NCBI GenBank assembly: GCA_963828165.1
Contig: CAWHDR010000001.1
Span: forward strand, 2,176,001-2,240,000
From: an uncultured Chloroflexia bacterium
GTDB taxonomy: Bacteria; Chloroflexota; Limnocylindria; Limnocylindrales; CSP1-4
Length of the DNA stretch: 64,000 nucleotides
Direction: 5' to 3'
Below, piece after piece: positions 5,615 through 58,885 of this stretch (positions are counted from its first letter, which is position 1; every line of letters begins with the position of its first letter). The translations under genes and the position numbers were made by a program. The notes beneath the pieces were generated by a model. That model was not told where the DNA came from and searched no databases. It worked only from the letters and a program-made list of their open reading frames with translations.

Positions 5615-6741
<1,127 letters not shown>

Positions 6742-6880
6742 GGCGCGCAGTCCTCCGTCCCGTCAGCTCATCGCGGGCCCTTGCATCCTGCCGCCGAAGC
6801 GAACGTGGACGGGCCCCGTACGTGGCAGCGCGGGGTCGCCGCATCGTACGGTCCGCGTTCCCCGGGCGCAAGCCTCGGAC

Positions 6881-9891: not shown

Positions 9892-10940
9892 CGGCGGCTG
9901 GAGGCTCGCAGCGCGGCGAGGGAGTCGATCCGCAACCGGTCGTCGGTCCCGTCGAGGTCGTTTCGCTCAACGATCGCCGCGAACCGTTCGACGAGGTCGG
10001 GATCGAAGTGGTGGCCGGATTGAGCGACGATCTCCCCGATCGCGTTCTCCGCTGAACCCGCGTCGCGGTACGGCCGGTCGTGGACGATCGCGTCGAAGGC
10101 ATCGACGAGGCCGACGATGCGGGCGCCGATCGGGATCTCCTCGCCCTTCAGGCGGTCCGGGTAGCCGCCGCCGTCCCAGCGCTCGTGGTGGTGCCGCACG
10201 ATCGGGGCGAATTCGCGCGAGCTCGCGAGGGGACGGCAGATCTGCTCGCCGATGATCGGGTGGCGTCGCATCTCGATCCATTCGTCCTCGGTCAGGGCGC
10301 CGGGCTTCTTGAGGATACCGTCGGAAACGCCGATCTTGCCGATGTCGTGGAGAAGGGCCCCGAACACCACGCCCTTGATGCTCACAGGATCGAGCTCGGC
10401 GGCGGTCGCGAGGAGATGGGCGAGGCCTGCCAGGCGCTGGCAATGATGCTCGGTCATCGTGTCCTTGGCTTCGACCGCATTGGCCAGGGCGGCCACGACG
10501 CCCTGGGCGCTCTCCATCTCGGCCATGACGAGGGCCAGGCGCCGGGCACTGCGGAGTCGCGCGAGCAGCTCCGCCTCGTGGAAGGGCTTGGCGAGAAAGT
10601 CGTCCGCGCCCGCATCGAGCCCAGCCACGACATCGTCGACCGACGTGCGCCCCGTCAGCAGGACCACGGGCAACGTCACCGTGCGCGGGTCCGCTCGCAG
10701 GCGGCGGCAGATCTCCAGGCCATCCATCCCGGGCAGGCCGACGTCCAGCAGCACGACATCCGGCGCCGTCTCGAGCGCGGCCTCCAGGCCGGACGGTCCG
10801 TCGTTCGCGGTGACCGCGCGGTAGCCCGCACGCTGGAGCAGCGCGGTCAGAAGGGCACGGTTCGCCGGGTCGTCCTCGATCACGAGGACGGTCGGCGCCG
10901 TGGGTTCGATGAGGGTTGCCGACGTGGCGGCGTGCAACAT
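9888..10940 (-). CDS. Response regulator with HD-GYP c-di-GMP phosphodiesterase domain (RpfG-like)
   Basis: REC (LLDVGLPGMDG, KPF) plus LHDIGK, HHERWDGGGYP, RPYR; start placed at ATG 10940 (uncertain). Confidence 0.9.
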   Translation of the reverse strand: MLHAATSATLIEPTAPTVLVIEDDPANRALLTALLQRAGYRAVTANDGPSGLEAALETAPDVVLLDVGLPGMDGLEICRRLRADPRTVTLPVVLLTGRTSVDDVVAGLDAGADDFLAKPFHEAELLARLRSARRLALVMAEMESAQGVVAALANAVEAKDTMTEHHCQRLAGLAHLLATAAELDPVSIKGVVFGALLHDIGKIGVSDGILKKPGALTEDEWIEMRRHPIIGEQICRPLASSREFAPIVRHHHERWDGGGYPDRLKGEEIPIGARIVGLVDAFDAIVHDRPYRDAGSAENAIGEIVAQSGHHFDPDLVERFAAIVERNDLDGTDDRLRIDSLAALRASSRR

Positions 10941-13024: not shown

Positions 13025-13101
13025 TGGGGTGGCCTACGGGGCTCGAACCCGTAACCTCTGGAGCCACAATCCAGTGCTCTGCCCATTGAGCTAAGGCCAC
13101 C
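13025..13101 (-). tRNA. tRNA-His (GTG)
   Basis: GGTGGCCTTAGCTCAATGGGCAGAGCACTGGATTGTGGCTCCAGAGGTTACGGGTTCGAGCCCCGTAGGCCACCCCA: GTG anticodon, T-loop TTCGAG, G-1:C73 identity pair, encoded CCA. Confidence 0.97.
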
Positions 13102-36396: not shown

Positions 36397-36585
36397 TTGA
36401 ACAGTCGCCCGCCCGTCAAGCCTGCCATCGCCAACGAGCCCTTCAAGCACGTGATCGATGAGTACAAGCACCAAGCTCAGACGATCACCTGCACGTGCGG
36501 CTGGCACGGTAGCTCGGCGACGATCGATCGCGCCGGCTCCGAGTGGACGGCCCACCTCATCGAGGTTCGCGGCAAGAAGCGCTGA
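36397..36585 (+). CDS. 62 aa putative zinc-binding protein
   Basis: AGGAG-N6-TTG start; H...CTCGW...W..H motif; followed by a terminator. Confidence 0.65.
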   Translation: MNSRPPVKPAIANEPFKHVIDEYKHQAQTITCTCGWHGSSATIDRAGSEWTAHLIEVRGKKR

Positions 36586-36607
36586 GCCCGAATACCGAAC
36601 GGACGAC

Positions 36608-36638
36608 GACCCGGATCGACCGATCCGGGTCTTTCTTT
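36608..36638 (+). terminator. Rho-independent terminator
   Basis: GACCCGGATCG-AC-CGATCCGGGTC followed by TTTCTTT. Confidence 0.85.
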
Positions 36639-36692
36639 GCCCGTGGCAGGGTCGCCGGTCGGCGACGTCGAACGCCTGCTAGCCTGTCGCGC

Positions 36693-38018
36693 GTGGACCT
36701 GCCTCAGAGCCCGCCATTCGCGCTCCGCGGTCGCCTCCTGACGCCCCTCGACGACGGCGGCACGACGTACGAGGCCAACGGGCTCCTGGTGGTGGACGGC
36801 TCCGGCCGGATCGCCTTCGCCGGCCCCGCCGATGCTCGGCCGGAGGAGGCGTCCGGTGCCATCGATCTGCGGCGATGGCTCCTCCTCCCTGGCATGGTCG
36901 ACCTGCACGCCCACCTGCCCCAGCTCCCGAACGCCGGTCTGGGCGCCGGCCTCGACCTGCTGACGTGGCTCGAGCGGTACATCTTTCCGCTGGAGCGTGC
37001 CTTCGATGCGGCGGCAGCCGAGCGGCTGGCCCCGGCCGCCTGGCGCGCCTTTGCGGGCGCGGGCACGACGACCGCGATGGTCTACGGAGCGGTCTACGAA
37101 GCGAGCCTGGACGCCACGTTCCGTGCGGCCGAGGCGCACGGGATCCGGGCCATCGTGGGCAAGGTGATGATGGACCGGGGGACCTACGACCCGACGATCG
37201 ACCCCAAGGTCATCCTCGATCAGAGCCTGGCCGAATCCGCGCGGCTGATCGATCGATGGCATGGGGCCGACGACGGCCGCCTCCGGTACGCGGTCACGCC
37301 GCGGTTCGCCATCACCTGCACGGCCGACCTGCTCCGCGAGTCCGCCGCGCTCGCCACCAGCACCGGGGCCTACTGGCAGACGCACGTGTCGGAAGACCGT
37401 GGCGAGATCGCGGAAGTCGCCCGGCTCTTCCCGGACGCCATCGATTACGTCGACGTCTACGACCGCGCCGGAGGGCTCGGAGAGCAGACCGTGCTCGCGC
37501 ACGCCGTTCATCTCTCCGATCGGGAGCTCGGGCGTCTGGTCGAAACCGGAACACGGATCGCCCATTGCCCCGTGTCGAACCTGTTCCTGGCGTCGGGGAT
37601 GATGCCACTGGGCCGGTACCTCGATGCGGGCATGAGCCTGGGGCTGGGCTCGGACGTCGCCGGGGGTCCGGACCTCTCGATCTTCACGGTCATGCGGACC
37701 GGCTTCTACGTGCAGAACGCCCGTCGCGTGGCCGGCGTCGAGGAGGGACGCATTCTCACGCCGTTGGACTGGCTGCGCCTTGGATCGCTGGGAGGAGCGC
37801 AGGCGCTGGGCCTCGGCGAGGTCATCGGCTCGCTGGAGGCCGGCAAGGAAGCCGACGTGATCGCGGTCGACCCGGCCTTCACGGCGCCGGTCCCGGGCGT
37901 GGAAGACGACGAGGCCGCGGACATCGCGAGTCGGATGATCTTCCGCTCACACCCCGACATGGTCCGAGCCGCCTGGGTCCGCGGCCGTCGCCTGGAGGGA
38001 CCCGGAGCTCGCGGGTGA
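36693..38018 (+). CDS. guaD: Guanine deaminase
   Basis: DLHAHLPQ, LLTWLERYIFP, VTPRFA, QTHVSE, AHCPVSNLFLASG, GSDVAGG. Confidence 0.92.
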   Translation: MDLPQSPPFALRGRLLTPLDDGGTTYEANGLLVVDGSGRIAFAGPADARPEEASGAIDLRRWLLLPGMVDLHAHLPQLPNAGLGAGLDLLTWLERYIFPLERAFDAAAAERLAPAAWRAFAGAGTTTAMVYGAVYEASLDATFRAAEAHGIRAIVGKVMMDRGTYDPTIDPKVILDQSLAESARLIDRWHGADDGRLRYAVTPRFAITCTADLLRESAALATSTGAYWQTHVSEDRGEIAEVARLFPDAIDYVDVYDRAGGLGEQTVLAHAVHLSDRELGRLVETGTRIAHCPVSNLFLASGMMPLGRYLDAGMSLGLGSDVAGGPDLSIFTVMRTGFYVQNARRVAGVEEGRILTPLDWLRLGSLGGAQALGLGEVIGSLEAGKEADVIAVDPAFTAPVPGVEDDEAADIASRMIFRSHPDMVRAAWVRGRRLEGPGARG

Positions 38019-38035
38019 CGGACGTTTCGCGGTCC

Positions 38036-38185
38036 ACGTGCACCGGGCGCTCCTATCGTCGAACGGACCTTGCCCCGATGCCCGTTTGTGCGCTCAGTGC
38101 ACGCCACCTCGGCTGAACGCTCGGATCGGCCCGCTAGCCGGGCTCGGTCGACGGTCCGTCCGACGATAGCGTCGTGGGATGCACG
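38036..38185. repeat. 150-bp palindromic element, copy 1 (downstream of the XRE gene)
   Basis: ACGTGCACC-N8-CTATCGTCGAA ... TCCGACGATAG...GATGCACG; direct repeat of 38976-39125 at offset 940 with no gaps. Confidence 0.9.
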
Positions 38186-38213
38186 GAAAGAGGCTGGCGG
38201 GCCCTCGGGTCGC

Positions 38214-38885
38214 CTATAGGAAGATCAGGGCCGAACCGCCCGGATGCTCGCCGCGGCTTAGTGCCGCCAGGGCGCGGCGGGCACTGATCGGGAAACGATC
38301 CGCGAGCGCCGCCGCGGCCGTGGCGATGGCGGCTCGGTTGGCGGGTGTGTCGGAGATCACGACGATGATGTGCTCGATCTCGGCGTCGCGAGCCTTCCGT
38401 TCGATTCGGCGGAACTGGGCCTGGGTGTCATGGATCCGAGTCTCGGCCTCCGCTGGGATGATGCGGTCGCGGTCGTTGGCGCTTCGAAGGCCACCGACGA
38501 CGCTGTCCCACGCCCGCAGGTCGTTCGCGATCGGCAGCGGGACTTCTATCCGGAAAGTCAGATCGGGATGCAAGCGAGCACGGAAGCGCGACAGGAGGGC
38601 TGCTTGAGCGGCATCGCGGATCGGATCCGGTCCGGGGTAGGCGCGAATCCGGACGTCCAGCCCGACGACCGCTCCGATCCGACCTAGCTGGACAGCCGTT
38701 ACCGCATCATGCCTCGACCGCTCGATCCGTCCGACCTGGGAACCAGACATCCCGACCGCGCGACCGACCTCTTCGAGTGTTAGTCCTGCGGTCAGCCGCG
38801 CTGCACGAAGATCAGAGCCCATCGAGACGAGATCCCGCTGGACGGTCCTGGTGCCCCGATCGACGACCCTCTCCTTGGCTGGCAT
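38214..38885 (-). CDS. XRE-family HTH protein with putative PD-(D/E)XK-like C-terminal domain
   Basis: LRAARLTAGLTLEEVGRAVGMSGSQVGRIER HTH; C-terminal FRIEVPL...RAWD...AEAETRIHD...RRIERKARD acidic pattern (nuclease call is inference). Confidence 0.8.
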   Translation of the reverse strand: MPAKERVVDRGTRTVQRDLVSMGSDLRAARLTAGLTLEEVGRAVGMSGSQVGRIERSRHDAVTAVQLGRIGAVVGLDVRIRAYPGPDPIRDAAQAALLSRFRARLHPDLTFRIEVPLPIANDLRAWDSVVGGLRSANDRDRIIPAEAETRIHDTQAQFRRIERKARDAEIEHIIVVISDTPANRAAIATAAAALADRFPISARRALAALSRGEHPGGSALIFL

Positions 38886-38975
38886 GACCACAGTCTGCAA
38901 CTGAGCCCTCTACGTCGGCTTATCCATGTGCATCAGGTGCCCTACCGGCGAACGGATGCGCGCAGCCCGCGATCT

Positions 38976-39125
38976 ACGTGCACCGGGTGCTCCTATCGTC
39001 GAACGGCTCCGGTCCCGATGCCTGTTTGTGCAGCGGGTGCACGCCACCAACACGGAACCTGCCGGAATCCGCCGGACTTTCCACTCGCTCAGCGTTCCTT
39101 CGACGATAGCGTCGTGGGGTGCACG
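38976..39125. repeat. 150-bp palindromic element, copy 2 (upstream of the XRE gene)
   Basis: Same conserved blocks as copy 1; ends ACGTGCACC-N8-CTATCGTCGAA and TTCGACGATAG-N8-GGTGCACG. Confidence 0.9.
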
Positions 39126-39164
39126 TGCACCGCCGGCGTGACCCCAACGCGCTAAGGTCCGGGC

Positions 39165-40766
39165 ATGAGTGACAGCGTCGATCTCCTGATCACGAGCGGC
39201 GCGGTCGTGGACGGCACGGGCGCGCCGCCACGACCCGGCACGGTGGTCGTCGAGGGCGACCGGATGCGGCTGCTCCCCGGGGACGCGCCGCTCCCTGAGC
39301 ACGTCGGGCGGCGCATCGACGCCACCGGCAAGGTCGTCGCGCCCGGGTTCATCGACCTGCACAGCCATGGCGGCCTGGTCATCCTCGCCGAGCCGCGCCA
39401 CGAACCCAAGGTCCGCCAGGGCGTCACGACCGAGATCGTCGGGGTCGACGGCAACGGCTTCGCCCCGTTCGAGACCCGGGAGGACCTGCTCGACTTCGTC
39501 GACCTCGATTCGGGGCTCGACGGCCGGCCCGACCTCGACTACGACTGGCGCACGGTCGCCGACTATCTCGCCCGCTACGACGGCACGGTCAGCCTCAACG
39601 TCGGGACCCTGGTCGGTAACTCGCAGCTCAGGATCGGCGCGCTGGGCTGGGACGACGTCCCGGCCGGTGATGGAGCCATCGATCGCATGCGCGGCATCCT
39701 GCGCGACGCGCTGGCCGAAGGCGCGGTAGGCCTCTCAAGCGGTCTCGACTACCCGCCGGGGAGCTACGCCACCACCGAGGAGCTCGCCGCGCTGACACGG
39801 ACCGCGGGCGAGGCCGGCGGCTTCTATCACACCCACGTCCGGTACCAGCTCGGCGATCGCTACCTCGACCCGTTCAAGGAAGCCATCGACATCGGACGCC
39901 GTGCCGGCGCACCTGCACACATCACGCACTTCTATCACCGCCAGACCCATCCAGGTGGCCCGGAGGCCCTCATCGCCCTGGTCGACGATGCGCGCGCCGG
40001 CGGCCTCGACGTCACGTTCGACACCTACCCGTCGGAGTGGGCGAGCACGCGGCTCCTCATCCAGCTTCCAGGCTGGATCCAGGAAGGCGGACCGAGGCCG
40101 CTCAAGCAACGCCTCGCCGACCGAGCTGCCCGCGATCGCCTGCGCGAAGAATTCTCGGCTCGCGGCGCGGCCTACACGGGACCGGGTGGCTGGGCGGACC
40201 TGCGCCTGGGCGCGTTCCACCGCCCCGATCTCCTGCGCTGGGAATCGATGACCATGGCGGACGTGATGGATGAGACGGGCAAGGACGCCGTCGACGTCAT
40301 CTGCGATCTGCTGCTGGCCGAAGACCTCGGCGTCAACCAGGTCACGAGCGGGCCGTGGTCCGAGACGCTGCGCGACTTCGTCAAGCATCCGGTCGGGATG
40401 GTTGGCACGGATTCCACGTTCATCGGTGCCAAGCCGAGCCCGCGGACCTACGGTTCATTCCCACGGATCCTTGGTCAGTTCGTGCGCGACGAAGGCCTCC
40501 TGAGCCTCGAGCAAGCCATCCACAAGATGACCGGTGCAGCCGCGGCCCGCCTGGGCCTCAAGCAGCGCGGAACGATCCGCGACGGTGCCTACGCCGACTT
40601 GGTCGTCTTCGATCCGGCGGAGGTTCGAAGCAACGCCACGTACGACGACCCGCGCCGCTTCCCGAGCGGCATCGACCATGTCGTGGTCAATGGCACCCTC
40701 GTCGTGGACAGCGGCACCCACACCGGCGCGTTCCCAGGACGTGGGATCCGCCTCGGGGCCGACTGA
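39165..40766 (+). CDS. N-acyl-D-amino-acid deacylase family amidohydrolase
   Basis: PGFIDLHSH, QGVTTE, SSGLDYPPG, HTHVR, PRTYGSFPRILG, ADLVVFDP. Confidence 0.88.
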   Translation: MSDSVDLLITSGAVVDGTGAPPRPGTVVVEGDRMRLLPGDAPLPEHVGRRIDATGKVVAPGFIDLHSHGGLVILAEPRHEPKVRQGVTTEIVGVDGNGFAPFETREDLLDFVDLDSGLDGRPDLDYDWRTVADYLARYDGTVSLNVGTLVGNSQLRIGALGWDDVPAGDGAIDRMRGILRDALAEGAVGLSSGLDYPPGSYATTEELAALTRTAGEAGGFYHTHVRYQLGDRYLDPFKEAIDIGRRAGAPAHITHFYHRQTHPGGPEALIALVDDARAGGLDVTFDTYPSEWASTRLLIQLPGWIQEGGPRPLKQRLADRAARDRLREEFSARGAAYTGPGGWADLRLGAFHRPDLLRWESMTMADVMDETGKDAVDVICDLLLAEDLGVNQVTSGPWSETLRDFVKHPVGMVGTDSTFIGAKPSPRTYGSFPRILGQFVRDEGLLSLEQAIHKMTGAAAARLGLKQRGTIRDGAYADLVVFDPAEVRSNATYDDPRRFPSGIDHVVVNGTLVVDSGTHTGAFPGRGIRLGAD

Positions 40767-54552: not shown

Positions 54553-55803
54553 ATGGAAGCCGTCGTCGTCCCGCTCCACTCCGCGGTCCGCCTGGAGGGC
54601 GATCGCATCATCGTCGAGCGCCTGTCCCTGTCGGACCCGACCCTCGCCGCGTTCCTGGGGGAGCGCCCGGCGGGGGATCGGGGTCCGCTCGTGGAGCGTG
54701 CGCTGCGTATCGGGCTGATCGCGCTGCAGGACGCCGGGGTCACGGTCAACGTCGATGCGGTCCGCTCGGAGTTCGATCGGATGGTCCGCCAGGCCGAGCA
54801 GGTCAACGAACGTGCTGCCGCGGCGCTCGAGCAGACGTTGCGTGCCAATTTCGCGGACGGCGACGGACGACTGCCGCGCACGCTGGAGAAGTTCCTCGGG
54901 GATCGCGGCGCGCTGCGGTCCATGGTGGACGAGCTGTTCGACGAGACCAAGCGGGACAGCGCGATCGGCCGGATCGGGGGGATGCTGGAGCGCTATTTCG
55001 ATGGCGACGCGTCCAAGCTCGCCCACCTCCTCGATCCGACGCGGCTGAACTCGCCCATGCACCAGTTCCGCCAGGAGATCGCGGCCGGGTTCAAGGGGCT
55101 GGAAGAGCGCCTGATCGCGATCGAGGCTGCGGCCGCCGCCCGGGGAGCCGAGCGGGCCAAGTCCGCGGCCAAGGGCGCGGACTTCGAGGAGCTGCTCGGG
55201 ACGATGCTGGGTGAGATCGCTCGGGGCGCCGGGGACCTGCTCGATCGGACGGGGTTCGAGACGGGCTCCACGATCAAGTCGAAGCGGGGCGATTTCGTGC
55301 TGACCGTGGACGCGCGGGTCGCGCGCGGGTGCGACCTCAAGGTCGTCATCGAGGCCAAGGACCGCCCCATGTCCATGCGAGCCATGCGCGACGAGCTGCG
55401 CGAGGCTCGCGAGAACCGGGGAGCCGCAGTCGGCGTGGCGGTCTTCTCGGCCGCCCACGCCCCGACCGGGATCGCGCCCTTCACCGTCGTGGGTGGGGAC
55501 GTGTACTGCGTGATCGATCCCGAGGCCCCGGAGACAGCAACGCTCGAGGCGGCCATCCGGCTCGCACGGCTCCTCGGCCTGGCGTCCCTCGTGGAGCGCG
55601 AGGTGGACGTGGATGCCGCGGCCATCGGGACCGCGCTGACGGCGATCCGCGAACAGCTCGAGGTGGTGCGTCAGCTCAAGTCGCAGTTGACCTCCATCTC
55701 GAATGCGACCAAGGCGGTCTGGAGCGGCCTGGACACCATGTGCTCGAACATCCTGGCGCGAGTCAAGGAAGCCGAGTCGGAGATCCGCGCCTCCGCCGAG
55801 TAG
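54553..55803 (+). CDS. Coiled-coil protein with PD-(D/E)XK motif (RmuC/DUF2130-like architecture)
   Basis: Helical N- and C-terminal parts; KGADFEE...RGDFV...VVIEAKD. Confidence 0.7.
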   Translation: MEAVVVPLHSAVRLEGDRIIVERLSLSDPTLAAFLGERPAGDRGPLVERALRIGLIALQDAGVTVNVDAVRSEFDRMVRQAEQVNERAAAALEQTLRANFADGDGRLPRTLEKFLGDRGALRSMVDELFDETKRDSAIGRIGGMLERYFDGDASKLAHLLDPTRLNSPMHQFRQEIAAGFKGLEERLIAIEAAAAARGAERAKSAAKGADFEELLGTMLGEIARGAGDLLDRTGFETGSTIKSKRGDFVLTVDARVARGCDLKVVIEAKDRPMSMRAMRDELREARENRGAAVGVAVFSAAHAPTGIAPFTVVGGDVYCVIDPEAPETATLEAAIRLARLLGLASLVEREVDVDAAAIGTALTAIREQLEVVRQLKSQLTSISNATKAVWSGLDTMCSNILARVKEAESEIRASAE

Positions 55804-55835: not shown

Positions 55836-56113
55836 GGCCGGAACTCGCCTCGGGCCGCGAGCTGGGACACGCGTCGCTGCTCGGATCCGGCCGGAACTCG
55901 CCTCGGGCCTGGGATCCTGGGCACGCGTCGCCGCTCGGATCCGGCCGATCCTCCTGCCCTCGGGCCGCGATCTGGGACACGCGTCGCCGCTCGGATCCGG
56001 CCGGAACTCGCCTCGGGCCTGGGATCCTGGGCACGCGTCGCCGCTCGGATCCGGCCGGAACTCGCCTCGGGCCTGGGATCCTGGGCACGCGTCGCCGGAT
56101 CCGGCTGGAACTC
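55836..56113. repeat. Minisatellite, five units of 50-56 bp plus a partial sixth
   Basis: Units start at 55836, 55889, 55943, 55999, 56053; consensus GGCCGGAACTCGCCTCGGGCCTGGGATCCTGGGCACGCGTCGCCGCTCGGATCC. Confidence 0.93.
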
Positions 56114-56527: not shown

Positions 56528-58885
56528 ATGCGTCGTCCCCTCGCCTCGCTGCCGCTTTCGCTGCTCCTGAGCCTGGCGATGGTCATCCCGACGATCGCCG
56601 CGGACCCCTCGCCGAGCGCCGAATCGTCCCTCGAGCCCAGCGCGCCACCGGCGACGGAGCCGAACCCGAGCTCCGAACCGACGCCGAGTGCCGAGCCGAC
56701 GCCGGCGACGGATCCGGCAACACCGCCGCCGAGCCCCGAGCCCCTCGCGACGGCCGACCCGGCGACACCCCCGCCGACCGAGCTGTCCGAACCCGCCACT
56801 GATCCCGCCCCCGCGGCGAACTCCGAAGCCAAGACCCCGACCATCCCCGCCGCCGGCGAGCCAGCCACCGACGCGAAGGGCCGCCCGATCGCGACCGGTC
56901 GCTACATCGTCCTTCTCGATCCGACGGCCGATACCGCGGCCGTGATCACCCGCCACGGGAAGCGCGACGGCATCAGGGCCGATCGCCGCTTCGAGCGTGC
57001 CGTTCGTGCCTTCTCGGCGAAGCTCGATGCCGGCCAGCGAAAGGCGCTCCAGTCGGACCCCAGCGTCGTGGCCGTCGTCCCCGACGAGGTCATCGGGATC
57101 ACCGCCCAGACCACACCGACCGGCGTCTCGCGGGTCGGCGCCCGCCTCTCGGCAACCGCGAACATCGATAACGTCGACGAGCGGGTGACCTCGGACGTCG
57201 CCATCGTCGACACGGGCGTTGCCCTGCACCCGGACCTGAACGTCGTCGGTGGCGTGAACTGCTCGACCAGCGATCGATCCGCATGGCAGGACCAGAACGG
57301 TCATGGCACGCACGTGGCGGGCACGGTCGCGGCCATCGACAACACCACCGGTGTCGTCGGCGTGGCACCCGGCGCCCGTATCTGGGCGGTCCGGATCCTG
57401 AACGCCGACGGATACGGGCTGCTTTCCTGGTACGTGTGCGGGCTCGACTGGATCCTCGCCCAGCGCGATCCGCTCGATGCCAGCCTGCCCAGGATCGAGG
57501 CGGTCAACATGAGCGTCGCCAAGACCGGCAGCGATGACCACAACTGCGGCCTCACCAACAAGGACGTCCTGCACCAGGCGATCTGCCGTCTGTACAAGGG
57601 TGGCATCACGGTGGTCGCCGCGGCTGCGAATGAGAGCGGGAGCGCTGCTGGCTACGTCCCCGCGGCCTACAACGAGGTCATCACGGTCTCGGCCCTCGCG
57701 GACACCGATGGCAAGTCCGGTGGCCTGGGCGGGAACCGCTGCTTCTCATGGGGCACGTACGACGTGGACGACACGTTCGCCGACTTCAGCAACTTCGGCT
57801 CGGATATCGACATCATCGCTCCGGGCAAATGTATCTGGTCGACCATTCGCGGACCCAGCTATGGGTACTCGTCCGGGACGTCCATGGCGGCCCCGGCCGT
57901 CACTGGCGCGGTCGCGCTGTACAAGGCCAGCCGCCCGCGAGCGACGCCGAGCGAAGTGCGGGCTTCACTCCGCTACCTCGGCAACCTCGCCTGGAAGACC
58001 TCGACCGATCCGGATAGCTTCCACGAGCCGCTGCTCGACGTGCACCGCGTGGCCGCCCTCGGGTCATTCAGCGTCGCCGCGCCGACTCCGGCGTTCGCCG
58101 CCCCACTGACCGGGGCCACGATCGCCGTCCCGGTGACGGTCAATCGCAGCTCGAGCTTCTTCGAACGCGTGAAACTGAGCTTCCGCGACGTGCCGGCCGG
58201 CTGGTCCACGACGTTGGCAGCGACGAGCCTGTTCGGGTGGACGGCCAAGAGCACCACGGCCACGATCAAGGTGCCATCGACGGCCAGGGCCGGCACCTAC
58301 AAGATCAAGATCGTCGGCACGAACTGGGGCCGCACGCGCTCATCGACGATCACGGTCCAGGTTGGTGCCATGCCGTTCACCGACGTGAACGACTTCGATG
58401 TCCAGATCGAGTGGCTGTACCAGTCAGGGATCACCGGTGGCTGCTCGCCGACCCTCTTCTGCCCCAAGGGCAAGGTCACGCGCGCCCAGATGGCGATGTT
58501 CCTGGACCGCGCCCTGGACCTGCCGGCGGCGACGGTCGACTACTTCGACGACGACGACGGCAAGACCGGCGAAGGCAGCATCAACGCCCTGGCCAGGGCC
58601 AAGATCACGGGCGGCTGCGGGCCGCGCCGCTTCTGCCCGGCGGCCTCGGTCACGCGCGCCCAGATGGCGATGTTCCTGGACCGCGCCCTGGCCCTGCCCA
58701 ACGCCACGACCGACTACTTCGACGACGACGACGGCCGGACCGGCGAAGGCAGCATCAACGCCTTGGCCCTGTCCAAGATCACCGGTGGCTGCGGCGACCG
58801 TCGCTACTGCCCGACGAGCTCGGTCACGCGCGAGCAGATGGCCGCCTTCCTGTACCGCGCCCACCTGCAGGGCCGCCTCGACTGA
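56528..58885 (+). CDS. Secreted S8 protease with I9-like propeptide and three SLH domains
   Basis: Signal peptide, Pro/Thr linker, AIVDTG, HGTHVAG, GTSMAAP, three GITGGC...FCP...VTR(A/E)QMA repeats. Confidence 0.93.
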   Translation: MRRPLASLPLSLLLSLAMVIPTIAADPSPSAESSLEPSAPPATEPNPSSEPTPSAEPTPATDPATPPPSPEPLATADPATPPPTELSEPATDPAPAANSEAKTPTIPAAGEPATDAKGRPIATGRYIVLLDPTADTAAVITRHGKRDGIRADRRFERAVRAFSAKLDAGQRKALQSDPSVVAVVPDEVIGITAQTTPTGVSRVGARLSATANIDNVDERVTSDVAIVDTGVALHPDLNVVGGVNCSTSDRSAWQDQNGHGTHVAGTVAAIDNTTGVVGVAPGARIWAVRILNADGYGLLSWYVCGLDWILAQRDPLDASLPRIEAVNMSVAKTGSDDHNCGLTNKDVLHQAICRLYKGGITVVAAAANESGSAAGYVPAAYNEVITVSALADTDGKSGGLGGNRCFSWGTYDVDDTFADFSNFGSDIDIIAPGKCIWSTIRGPSYGYSSGTSMAAPAVTGAVALYKASRPRATPSEVRASLRYLGNLAWKTSTDPDSFHEPLLDVHRVAALGSFSVAAPTPAFAAPLTGATIAVPVTVNRSSSFFERVKLSFRDVPAGWSTTLAATSLFGWTAKSTTATIKVPSTARAGTYKIKIVGTNWGRTRSSTITVQVGAMPFTDVNDFDVQIEWLYQSGITGGCSPTLFCPKGKVTRAQMAMFLDRALDLPAATVDYFDDDDGKTGEGSINALARAKITGGCGPRRFCPAASVTRAQMAMFLDRALALPNATTDYFDDDDGRTGEGSINALALSKITGGCGDRRYCPTSSVTREQMAAFLYRAHLQGRLD

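Follow-up and report, generated by a model that had tools for sequence, protein, structure and literature searches.

What links a small gene for a predicted helix-turn-helix (HTH) nuclease to the two long palindromic repeats that bracket it in the genome of an uncultured Chloroflexia bacterium (Limnocylindrales, CSP1-4)? The locus lies in a 64,000-nucleotide stretch of contig CAWHDR010000001.1 (assembly GCA_963828165.1, positions 2,176,001 to 2,240,000), hereafter the window, and had been singled out by a first-pass annotation as a candidate element-nuclease system. Our analysis favours, at about even odds (a probability of roughly 0.5), a cognate pair: a site-specific DNA-binding protein, probably also a nickase, together with an array of its own sites that has here been duplicated to both sides of the gene. 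The pairing of protein and boxes is the best-supported part of this reading. The features concerned, in window coordinates, are as follows.

36543–38018, plus strand: guanine deaminase gene (guaD; NF006679 at 352.5 bits, cut-off 351); it borders the HTH-nuclease gene at its 3' side and is adjacent in related loci too.
38028–38192, plus strand: element A, an imperfect palindrome of composite build; it lies in the 195-nt spacer where the guanine deaminase gene (stop at 38018) and the HTH-nuclease gene (stop at 38214) converge.
38214–38885, minus strand: HTH-nuclease gene, 223 aa from its ATG, with an XRE-type HTH at residues ~27–86 and a C-terminal domain at ~88–223.
38968–39133, plus strand: element B, the same composite palindrome in the same orientation as A, in the 279-nt divergent spacer between the ATGs of the HTH-nuclease gene (38885) and the amidohydrolase gene (39165).
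39165–40766, plus strand: Amidohydro_3-family hydrolase gene, the conserved divergent neighbour.

Elements A and B are each ~160 nt long and flank the 223-aa gene at an ungapped offset of 940. A repeat search of the window returned the pairs 38028–38108/38968–39048 (81 nt, 83%) and 38154–38185/39094–39125 (32 nt, 88%); because both are spaced 940 start to start, the two elements are in register, with no net gaps. They differ by a single mismatch in the first 31 nt and a single mismatch in the last 25 nt, share the internal blocks CCCGATGCCyGTTTGTGC and GTGCACGCCACC, and diverge over the central ~50 nt, in agreement with the first-pass description of conserved ends and blocks around a divergent centre. 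With one element as query, blastn recovered the other from the window (75.8% over 161 nt, E 1.7e-24). The remaining matches had E >=0.003, the best of them falling inside A or B or at 38923–38956, and no third full copy was found by blastn in the other 63 kb. The inverted ends described for each copy were likewise recovered, as inverted-repeat pairs in both. The element ends read ACGTGCAC...GTGCACG, and no target-site duplication is visible in the sequence at these ends.

Both elements carry short boxes at regular positions. GTGCAC occurs at 38038, 38097, 38978, 39037, 39119 and 39125, six of the window's 14 such sites and all within the elements; ATGCAC lies at 38179 and GTGCAT at 38928. The box spacings of 59 and 82 nt and the additional GTGCAT were correctly placed by the first reading. 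The sequence CTATCGTCGAACGG, allowing up to two mismatches, occurs seven times in the window against 1.14 expected, a count reached in 0 of 100 shuffles, and five of the seven lie in or beside A and B. A GTGCAC pair at 147–163, inside an open reading frame (ORF), was dismissed as chance. The modules are the following.

38035–38072, plus strand: left arm module of A, with the outer box CGTGCAC-CGGGCGCTC and then the tail CTATCGTCGAACGG (nhmmer arm profile, E 1.1e-10).
38095–38109: middle box of A, GTGCGC-TCA-GTGCAC, which in an alignment of relatives is the perfect palindrome GTGCAC-CGG-GTGCAC.
38152–38186, minus strand: right arm module of A, inverted, reading CGTGCAT-CCCACGACG-CTATCGTCGGACGG on the minus strand (nhmmer, E 1.1e-08).
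38923–38958, plus strand: degenerate extra left-arm module, ATGTGCATCAGGTGCCCTACCGGCGAACGG (blastn 80% over 35 nt; weak nhmmer match, E 0.11).
38975–39012 and 39092–39127: arms of B (nhmmer arm profile, E 1.8e-09 and 7.6e-09).
39035–39049: middle box of B.
39125: additional GTGCAC of B.

The degenerate module lies 38–70 nt before the HTH-nuclease ATG and 50 nt from the next module, a position that makes it a candidate promoter-proximal operator. Element A folds well (hairpin z-score -3.3 on the plus strand and -4.4 on the minus strand) and B weakly (-0.9 and -2.2, respectively). Between 37800 and 39400, we found no match to a simple consensus for a sigma-70-like promoter or an intrinsic terminator, and no terminator-like T-run.

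The start of the HTH-nuclease gene is backed by homologues that share its MPAKER start. Residues 27–86 form an XRE HTH (HTH_31, 37.6 bits against a cut-off of 27; HTH_3, 25.1 bits against 23), as had been recognized from the sequence. A Foldseek search of the PDB with a full-length model returned HTH matches only (HipB, ClgR, C.BclI and C.AhdI, at E 7e-4 to 2e-3), and the C-terminal domain was therefore modelled and searched separately. Its ~135 residues have no match in Pfam, NCBIfam, PHROGs, PADLOC or PDB sequences, and a profile of the C-terminal alignment gave only noise against Pfam and PDB sequences. The AlphaFold2 model of residues 85–223, computed from a 29-sequence alignment, reached a predicted local distance difference test (pLDDT) score of 93.4 and a predicted template modelling (pTM) score of 0.88. 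It has an alpha-beta-beta-beta-alpha-beta core (in full-length numbering, helix 88–103, strands 110–116, 125–131 and 142–148, helix 154–167 and strand 174–177), followed by a small helical subdomain.

In the PDB, the Foldseek list for this model is led by McrC, Bax1, NucS, OkrAI, Hjc, EcoT38I, BamHI, SfsA, EcoRII and VRR-NUC, the best structure match being McrC (6ut7_G, E 0.041, probability 0.93). Among the viral models of BFVD, endonucleases, Mrr, MmcB-like and VRR-NUC proteins lead, with a best match at E 0.002. As no match is significant, the nuclease fold rests on this consistent list of PD-(D/E)XK neighbours, on which we assign the C-terminal domain to the restriction-endonuclease (PD-(D/E)XK) fold with moderate confidence. 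Across 44 sequences with 35–53% identity to the window protein, E114, D127, D153, Q155, R159, K164 and D167 are invariant and D91, D122, E146, E148 and R166 nearly so. D127 lies on strand 2, E146-x-E148 on strand 3 and K164 on the next helix; together they read as a variant of the D...(D/E)xK motif. We tentatively liken E146-A-E148 to the BamHI site, where a glutamate replaces the lysine. That these residues are conserved favours a functional active site. The PD-(D/E)XK variant proposed in the first-pass annotation is supported by the predicted core fold and by the conservation of E114, D127, E146, E148 and K164, but not by any structure match at E <=0.001.

The protein probably belongs to a family that has had no description so far, its predicted architecture being that of a two-domain site-specific DNA protein, an XRE HTH joined to a restriction-endonuclease-fold domain. 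We found no account of an HTH/PD-(D/E)XK family of this kind in the literature, on the basis of few searches that constitute weak evidence of novelty. A word-indexed protein search returned 384 proteins at E <=1e-3 among 8000 scored candidates. The best 120 of the 384 share 53–100% identity with the query over the aligned part (11 of them cover <90% of it), and the named ones among these 120 are Candidatus Limnocylindrales. An exhaustive search of clusters formed at 50% identity yielded 1271, 750 and 156 clusters at E <=1e-3, 1e-10 and 1e-30, respectively; among 150 clusters listed, most are ~217 aa and match nearly the whole query. Neighbours in the ESM Atlas were Chloroflexota clusters only. 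A scan of species-representative genomes produced 50 loci (given below as L numbers), nearly all in metagenome-assembled genomes of Limnocylindrales/Chloroflexota and mostly one per genome. We saw the family, then, mainly in Limnocylindrales (Chloroflexota).

Many close homologues sit on contigs of 1–2.5 kb, which may reflect low-coverage soil assemblies or breakage at flanking repeats. The closest relative (L048, 88.5% identical to the window over 5.5 kb) has a gene with in-frame stops or frameshifts at 10001–10702; in tblastn, the neighbouring genes are broken too, a pattern that suggests a long-read assembly rich in indels and not a genuine pseudogene.

Element copies were sought in 836 kb of DNA, comprising the window and the loci. 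With the window element as query, blastn gave matches only in L001, L002, L003 and L048, always <=300 nt from the gene. A profile of 12 arms found 20 matches at E <0.005, all <=283 nt from the gene (window, L001, L002, L003, L007 and L048); the best match elsewhere had E 0.0088. A covariance model, built from six close copies and hence trained on gene-adjacent sequence, returned 22 distinct elements at E <0.01, of which 21, at 16 loci and beside other paralogue types as well, lie <=450 nt from the gene, a zone that makes up 5.3% of the DNA. Its matches in the window are A at 38029–38192 (158.6 bits) and B at 38969–39132 (154.8 bits). Within 400 nt of the gene, GTGCAC is 11-fold and CACCCCAC 16-fold denser than elsewhere.

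Two further comparisons do not depend on the element sequence. Of 64 intergenic regions flanking the gene, 15 carry tandem repeats with a period >=36; of 173 others, 5 do (Fisher p 3.8e-6; intergenic regions were called with a crude filter on third-position GC content, GC3), and beside the gene their periods are typically 50, 51 or 61 nt. The upstream and downstream flanks resemble each other at E <1e-6 in 9 of 49 loci and in 0 of 147 shifted pseudo-genes; at E <1e-3, the counts are 15 of 49 and 5 of 147. The nine loci comprise the window, L001, L002, L003 and L014 in the guaD slot, and L025, L028, L043 and L045 in unrelated slots. A cross-locus flank control (338 of 2352 pairs at E <1e-3) was uninformative and was dropped in favour of the shifted pseudo-genes, because related loci share homologous neighbour genes. 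Statistically, the link between gene and element is specific. Nor is the element scattered through the 836 kb, which hold one solo copy.

That copy, a 154-nt palindrome at L044:1516–1669, lies 8.4 kb from the gene and follows an adenosine deaminase-like ORF. It shares its box type with the element beside the FtsH-slot paralogue of the same genome. No hidden paralogue accompanies it, no extra gene copies were found in the 836 kb, and the matching positions of L012 and L023 gave no covariance-model match.

An alignment of 12 arms shows two conserved versions, CGTGCAC-CGGGYGCTC-CTATCGTCGAACGG for one side of the element and CGTGCAC-CCCACGACG-CTATCGTCGAACG for the opposite side. The 9-mer of each arm that does not pair (N9) is conserved as well. 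The earlier annotation had described inverted ends around unpaired N8 strands. Over six close copies, 1 of 44 pairs showed a compensatory change and the other substitutions break pairs; RNAalifold found no covariation support in the same six. Because pairing is broken while the non-pairing 9-mers are kept, the arms point to sequence recognized by a protein rather than to a selected hairpin, although six sequences give this comparison low power. Copy number and unit length of the arrays vary among close relatives: L002 and L003 carry the left-arm module in tandem with a 50-nt period, and L004 has a different 36-nt tandem unit, also with ACGTGCAC. Every guaD-slot (type-1) locus with GTGCAC arrays has one array on the 5' side of the amidohydrolase gene, in either orientation of the HTH-nuclease gene, and the earlier statement that the gene has no metabolic link to its neighbours was therefore too strong. 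L009, L035, L040 and L047 have the upstream element only, and the gap between the gene and guaD is as small as ~20 nt (L040).

The same layout recurs with other sequences beside diverged paralogues. L045 is the clearest parallel to the window, with 237-nt direct repeats on both sides of the gene, ~97% identical and with sharp ends, each carrying three TTCGGTC-N-GACCGA boxes. At L028, arrays with a 51-nt unit flank the gene, and the arrays of L025 and L043 are inverted. Long palindromes occur at L016, L022, L024, L027, L035 and L044, with ends of the types GGTCAC-CNGG-GTGACC, GATCAC..GTGATC or TGCAT.. boxes. The covariance-model elements fold as imperfect palindromes of 100–200 nt; their end boxes include GGTCAC-CCGG-GTGAC (L044), GGATCAC-CGG-GTGATCC (L022), GATCAC-CCG-GTGATC (L024), GGTCAT-CAG-GTGACC (L016) and TGCAT-GGG-ATGAAC (L035), and GAAC-rich tails follow the end boxes. 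A second box form, xxTCAC-CCC-ACGAxx, is common to the right arm of the window elements, L024, L025, L044 and L045. The longest array that we saw, 61 nt x 7.6 (Tandem Repeats Finder (TRF) score 708), spans L012:10712–11163 between the convergent stops of the gene and an FtsH-like gene, and its unit carries GTGCC-ACCGGGC-GGCAC.

In 30 of the 50 loci, guaD and/or the amidohydrolase gene adjoins the HTH-nuclease gene, as in the window, and the conserved neighbours there are guanine deaminase, amidohydrolase, a GGDEF protein and xanthine dehydrogenase. The other slots are these; the remaining loci are singletons.

Cupredoxin / gene / FtsH-like: L010, L012, L017, L022, L023 and L044.
Tryptophanyl-tRNA synthetase (TrpRS) / gene / homoserine dehydrogenase: L025 and L026.
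MTTB / gene / YjbR-AlkZ: L034, L038, L042, L049 and L050.
DUF6941 / gene: L021, L045 and L046.

Within the guaD slot, the gene has the opposite orientation in 7 of 30 loci (L005, L006, L008, L013, L015, L019 and L030), where it is co-directional with guaD and the amidohydrolase gene and has GTGCAC boxes only between its stop and the amidohydrolase start. In a FastTree phylogeny of 42 intact proteins (midpoint-rooted; nine loci with frameshifts or short matches were dropped), six of these seven form one clade, sister to the clade of the window, which is consistent with a single inversion. Lineages in the FtsH, TrpRS and DUF6941 slots fall within the guaD-slot lineages, and a further guaD-slot group is the sister of the MTTB lineage. 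This branching suggests a few events in which the gene was copied to a new site, with vertical inheritance thereafter. It is on no visible mobile element: no integrase, transposase or conjugation protein was found among 42 neighbours scanned at other loci, all of which are of housekeeping type, and tblastn of the protein against 72,556 plasmids gave no match. Gene pairs corresponding to the slots of the other paralogues, sought in the window as sites lacking the gene, are absent there.

From this arrangement we infer binding to the boxes, dimerization, regulation, and nicking or cutting at or near the modules. The HTH, presumably as a dimer, would read 15-bp palindromic boxes, which in the lineage of the window have the form GTGC-N7-GCAC and ideally GTGCAC-CGG-GTGCAC. 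The 150-nt palindromes would then be arrays of the protein's own binding modules, each module (~35 nt) consisting of a box and a GAACGG-type tail, with two or three modules head to tail at 50–60 nt spacing and an inverted module to close the array. The ancestral array would have lain between the HTH-nuclease and amidohydrolase genes, in their common divergent promoter region. At element B, the protein would regulate its own gene and control the divergent amidohydrolase gene; this is the most economical account of B, because an array is kept at the amidohydrolase 5' side and the proximal module lies 38–70 nt before the ATG.

Element A cannot be an operator, because it lies between two convergent stop codons. 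We read it as a copy of the array that arose 3' of the gene in the sub-lineage of the window, an event that would have created the direct repeats 940 nt apart; relatives without a 3'-side element have a very short spacer at this position. Protein bound at both arrays could bridge A and B. The nuclease domain may nick or cut at or near the modules, the obvious place being the tail beside the box, in a manner comparable to the relaxase TraX at its origin of transfer (oriT). Local cutting followed by repair would explain the fast turnover of the arrays in copy number and unit length, and the repeated origin of bracketing.

Several observations weigh against a cognate pair of this kind. On the protein side, no Foldseek match to the C-terminal domain in the PDB or BFVD reaches E <=0.001, and a glutamate (E148 in E146-A-E148) takes the place of the canonical lysine of (D/E)xK. 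On the DNA side, only 25 of 51 loci have a covariance-model match near the gene even at E <1, and the model had gene-adjacent copies as its training set. The expectation that homologues would have flanking palindromes was borne out by the palindromes and arrays found beside the gene, but not throughout, since the flanks contain no recurrent 9-mer at about half of the loci. The tandem-repeat excess depends on the crude GC3 calls, and an unrelated 54-nt array in the window means that arrays as such are not unique to the gene. Palindromes covarying with the recognition helix, also expected earlier, did not emerge clearly from the comparison of paralogues: the helix SQVGRIER hardly differs between paralogues whose boxes do, so no protein–site covariation is shown. 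Arrays on the 3' side lie between convergent stops at the window (element A), L012, L016, L021 and L044, and a promoter-operator role cannot explain these. The 54-nt array itself is an intergenic tandem repeat at 55836–56097 (54 nt x 4.8, or 110 nt x 2.4), after an ORF ending at 55803, and is unrelated to A and B in sequence.

The same facts can be arranged differently. The locus might be a DNA-processing cassette, now largely sessile, whose site-specific nickase or endonuclease acts on the flanking palindrome as a hairpin, as a cruciform or through the bound boxes; cutting at the direct repeats, or recombination between them, would release or copy the 940-nt unit of gene and element, as a non-HUH analogue of a relaxase with its oriT, of RAYT and REP (described below) or of a homing cassette. 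We consider this a tentative possibility. The conserved catalytic-type residues speak for it, as does the likeness of an HTH plus PD-(D/E)XK protein of ~220 aa, beside a ~150-nt inverted repeat and direct repeats, to the MOBC relaxase TraX and oriT of plasmid pAD1, as described in the review PMC12857230. Bracketing repeats in independent paralogues (the 9 of 49 loci above, with the sharp-ended flanks of L045), array copy number that varies among close relatives, and inversion of the gene within one monophyletic clade of a single slot count in its favour as well. Furthermore, since the FtsH, TrpRS, DUF6941 and MTTB paralogues are nested among guaD-slot lineages and have related boxes, gene and element appear to have relocated jointly on several occasions. 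Yet the gene is syntenic across the order and mostly has one match per genome, with no extra copy in the 836 kb and none on the plasmids; no coupling protein, type IV secretion system, integrase or transposase lies nearby; the element ends lack a visible target-site duplication; and in many lineages the gene persists beside a single element or with none that could be detected. A version in which the nickase reads the arrays, cuts the palindrome, and duplicates, inverts, amplifies and occasionally relocates the unit, which is now largely domesticated, appears unlikely to us.

Alternatively, the elements could act as RNA, A being a 3' hairpin that stabilizes or terminates the guanine deaminase (or HTH-gene) mRNA and B a leader of the amidohydrolase mRNA, with the nuclease domain perhaps processing RNA in the manner of a type III toxin–antitoxin repeat–nuclease pair. 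Tandem repeat arrays beside a nuclease gene recall ToxI/ToxN. A and B are co-oriented with guaD and the amidohydrolase gene, just past one stop and 32–40 nt before the other start, and not only A but 15 diverged elements fold better than shuffled sequences (z -1.4 to -4.8). Against this stand the single compensatory change among 44 pairs, the substitutions that break pairs, the plus strand of B, which folds no better than shuffles (z -0.86), the lack of a T-run, and the fact that no Rfam family matches the elements at gathering scores. The boxes, moreover, are short DNA palindromes with paralogue-specific outer bases, which fits dimeric HTH sites, and the arrays occur on either side of the gene and are inverted in L025 and L043. 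We regard the RNA account as very unlikely. Coincidence, in which an ordinary local XRE regulator came by chance to have a lineage-specific intergenic repeat (like a miniature inverted-repeat transposable element, MITE, or a REP) on either side, is in our view highly improbable. It would accommodate the solo element of L044 and the intergenic tandem arrays found elsewhere (the 5 of 173), but not the adjacency of 21 of 22 model matches and of all 20 strong arm matches to the gene, the remaining 63 kb of the window without a copy, or the same architecture, with different boxes, beside diverged paralogues in unrelated slots.

Among known systems, the layout is by analogy closest to a MOBC relaxase with its oriT, not to REP/RAYT. 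TraX of the Enterococcus plasmid pAD1 and MobC of CloDF13 are likewise small proteins with an N-terminal HTH and a PD-(D/E)XK-related domain, encoded beside their DNA target. The pAD1 target reportedly also has a large inverted repeat of ~140 bp. According to the review PMC12857230, the binding site of TraX in oriT consists of direct repeats 70–120 bp from the cleavage (nic) site, and a covalent intermediate has not been observed for MOBC relaxases. Membership in the MOBC family is not supported. The window protein has no sequence similarity to the 72,556 plasmids (tblastn), is of XRE type where MOBC proteins have a winged HTH, and has elements on both sides of its gene; its family is chromosomal and syntenic across an order, with no coupling-protein or type IV secretion genes nearby.

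RAYT genes (REP-associated tyrosine transposases) sit among their REPs (repetitive extragenic palindromes), and the window shares with them a nuclease-type gene flanked by presumed cognate palindromes. The protein differs in lacking an HUH/Y1 Pfam domain and in its predicted restriction-endonuclease-like fold. REPs are palindromes of 20–40 nt (PMC3733652), whereas the elements of the window family are composites of 100–240 nt and are not dispersed within the 836 kb. The REP/RAYT analogy drawn in the first-pass annotation is not supported as far as propagation is concerned: the gene is single-copy and syntenic in the 30 loci, and apart from the solo element no dispersed copies exist in the 836 kb. 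Propagation of that kind, and mobility in the present state, are unlikely.

The HTH is closest to those of C.AhdI, C.BclI, ClgR, HipB and SinR, and like XRE repressors and the controller (C) proteins of restriction–modification systems, the protein has palindromic boxes upstream of its own gene, one of them ~40–60 nt from the start codon. It differs from them in the extra 135-residue domain with a predicted nuclease fold and conserved acidic residues, and in sites that are amplified into arrays, often 3' of the gene between convergent stops. No methyltransferase or separate endonuclease gene adjoins the HTH-nuclease gene, and a controller-protein/restriction–modification reading was set aside on that ground. 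BamHI/OkrAI and Hjc nucleases have the same core topology as the modelled domain (PDB ranks 6 for 3odh, 7 for 2wiz and 20 for 2bam), but with TM-scores of 0.33–0.39, E >0.1 and no sequence similarity to the window protein, whose domain is fused to an HTH and has no partner methyltransferase. An integron cassette with attC was rejected, as no integrase is found among the ORFs between 35 and 42 kb of the window and the ends ACGTGCAC...GTGCACG do not correspond to the attC core. A type III toxin–antitoxin (ToxIN-like) system was rejected in view of arrays that mostly lie downstream of the gene or flank it, the PD-(D/E)XK-like fold with an HTH, and the lack of a toxin–antitoxin match in PADLOC.

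What is likely to be new here is a protein of predicted restriction fold, guided by its HTH and accompanied by probable cognate repeats next to its gene. A functional pairing would give an unannotated domain family (750 clusters at E <=1e-10, no Pfam model) its likely DNA target, in a phylum of soil and freshwater that has been little studied. It would also offer a system in which to ask how an HTH directs a restriction-fold domain to a nearby site, a question that is open for MOBC relaxases too, and the paralogue-specific boxes could represent a natural set of orthogonal protein–site pairs. The cassette explanation, if true, would mean a non-HUH, non-recombinase route to mobility in Limnocylindrales chromosomes. 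If the protein is a repressor only, the result is modest: a new family of regulators, acting on a purine-catabolism cluster through unusually elaborate operators.

Other genes near the locus encode an FAD (flavin adenine dinucleotide) oxidoreductase, a GGDEF protein and a xanthine-dehydrogenase-like protein. Rfam matches in the window are limited to two, both away from the elements: a malK-III RNA at 6739–6835 on the minus strand (79.3 bits against a gathering score of 50, E 2.2e-16) and a tRNA gene at 13028–13100 on the minus strand (Rfam tRNA, 68.2 bits). A tandem repeat of 174 nt x 2.2 (TRF score 559) at 58474–58862 lies inside the ORF 56528–58885 and is probably a repeated protein segment.

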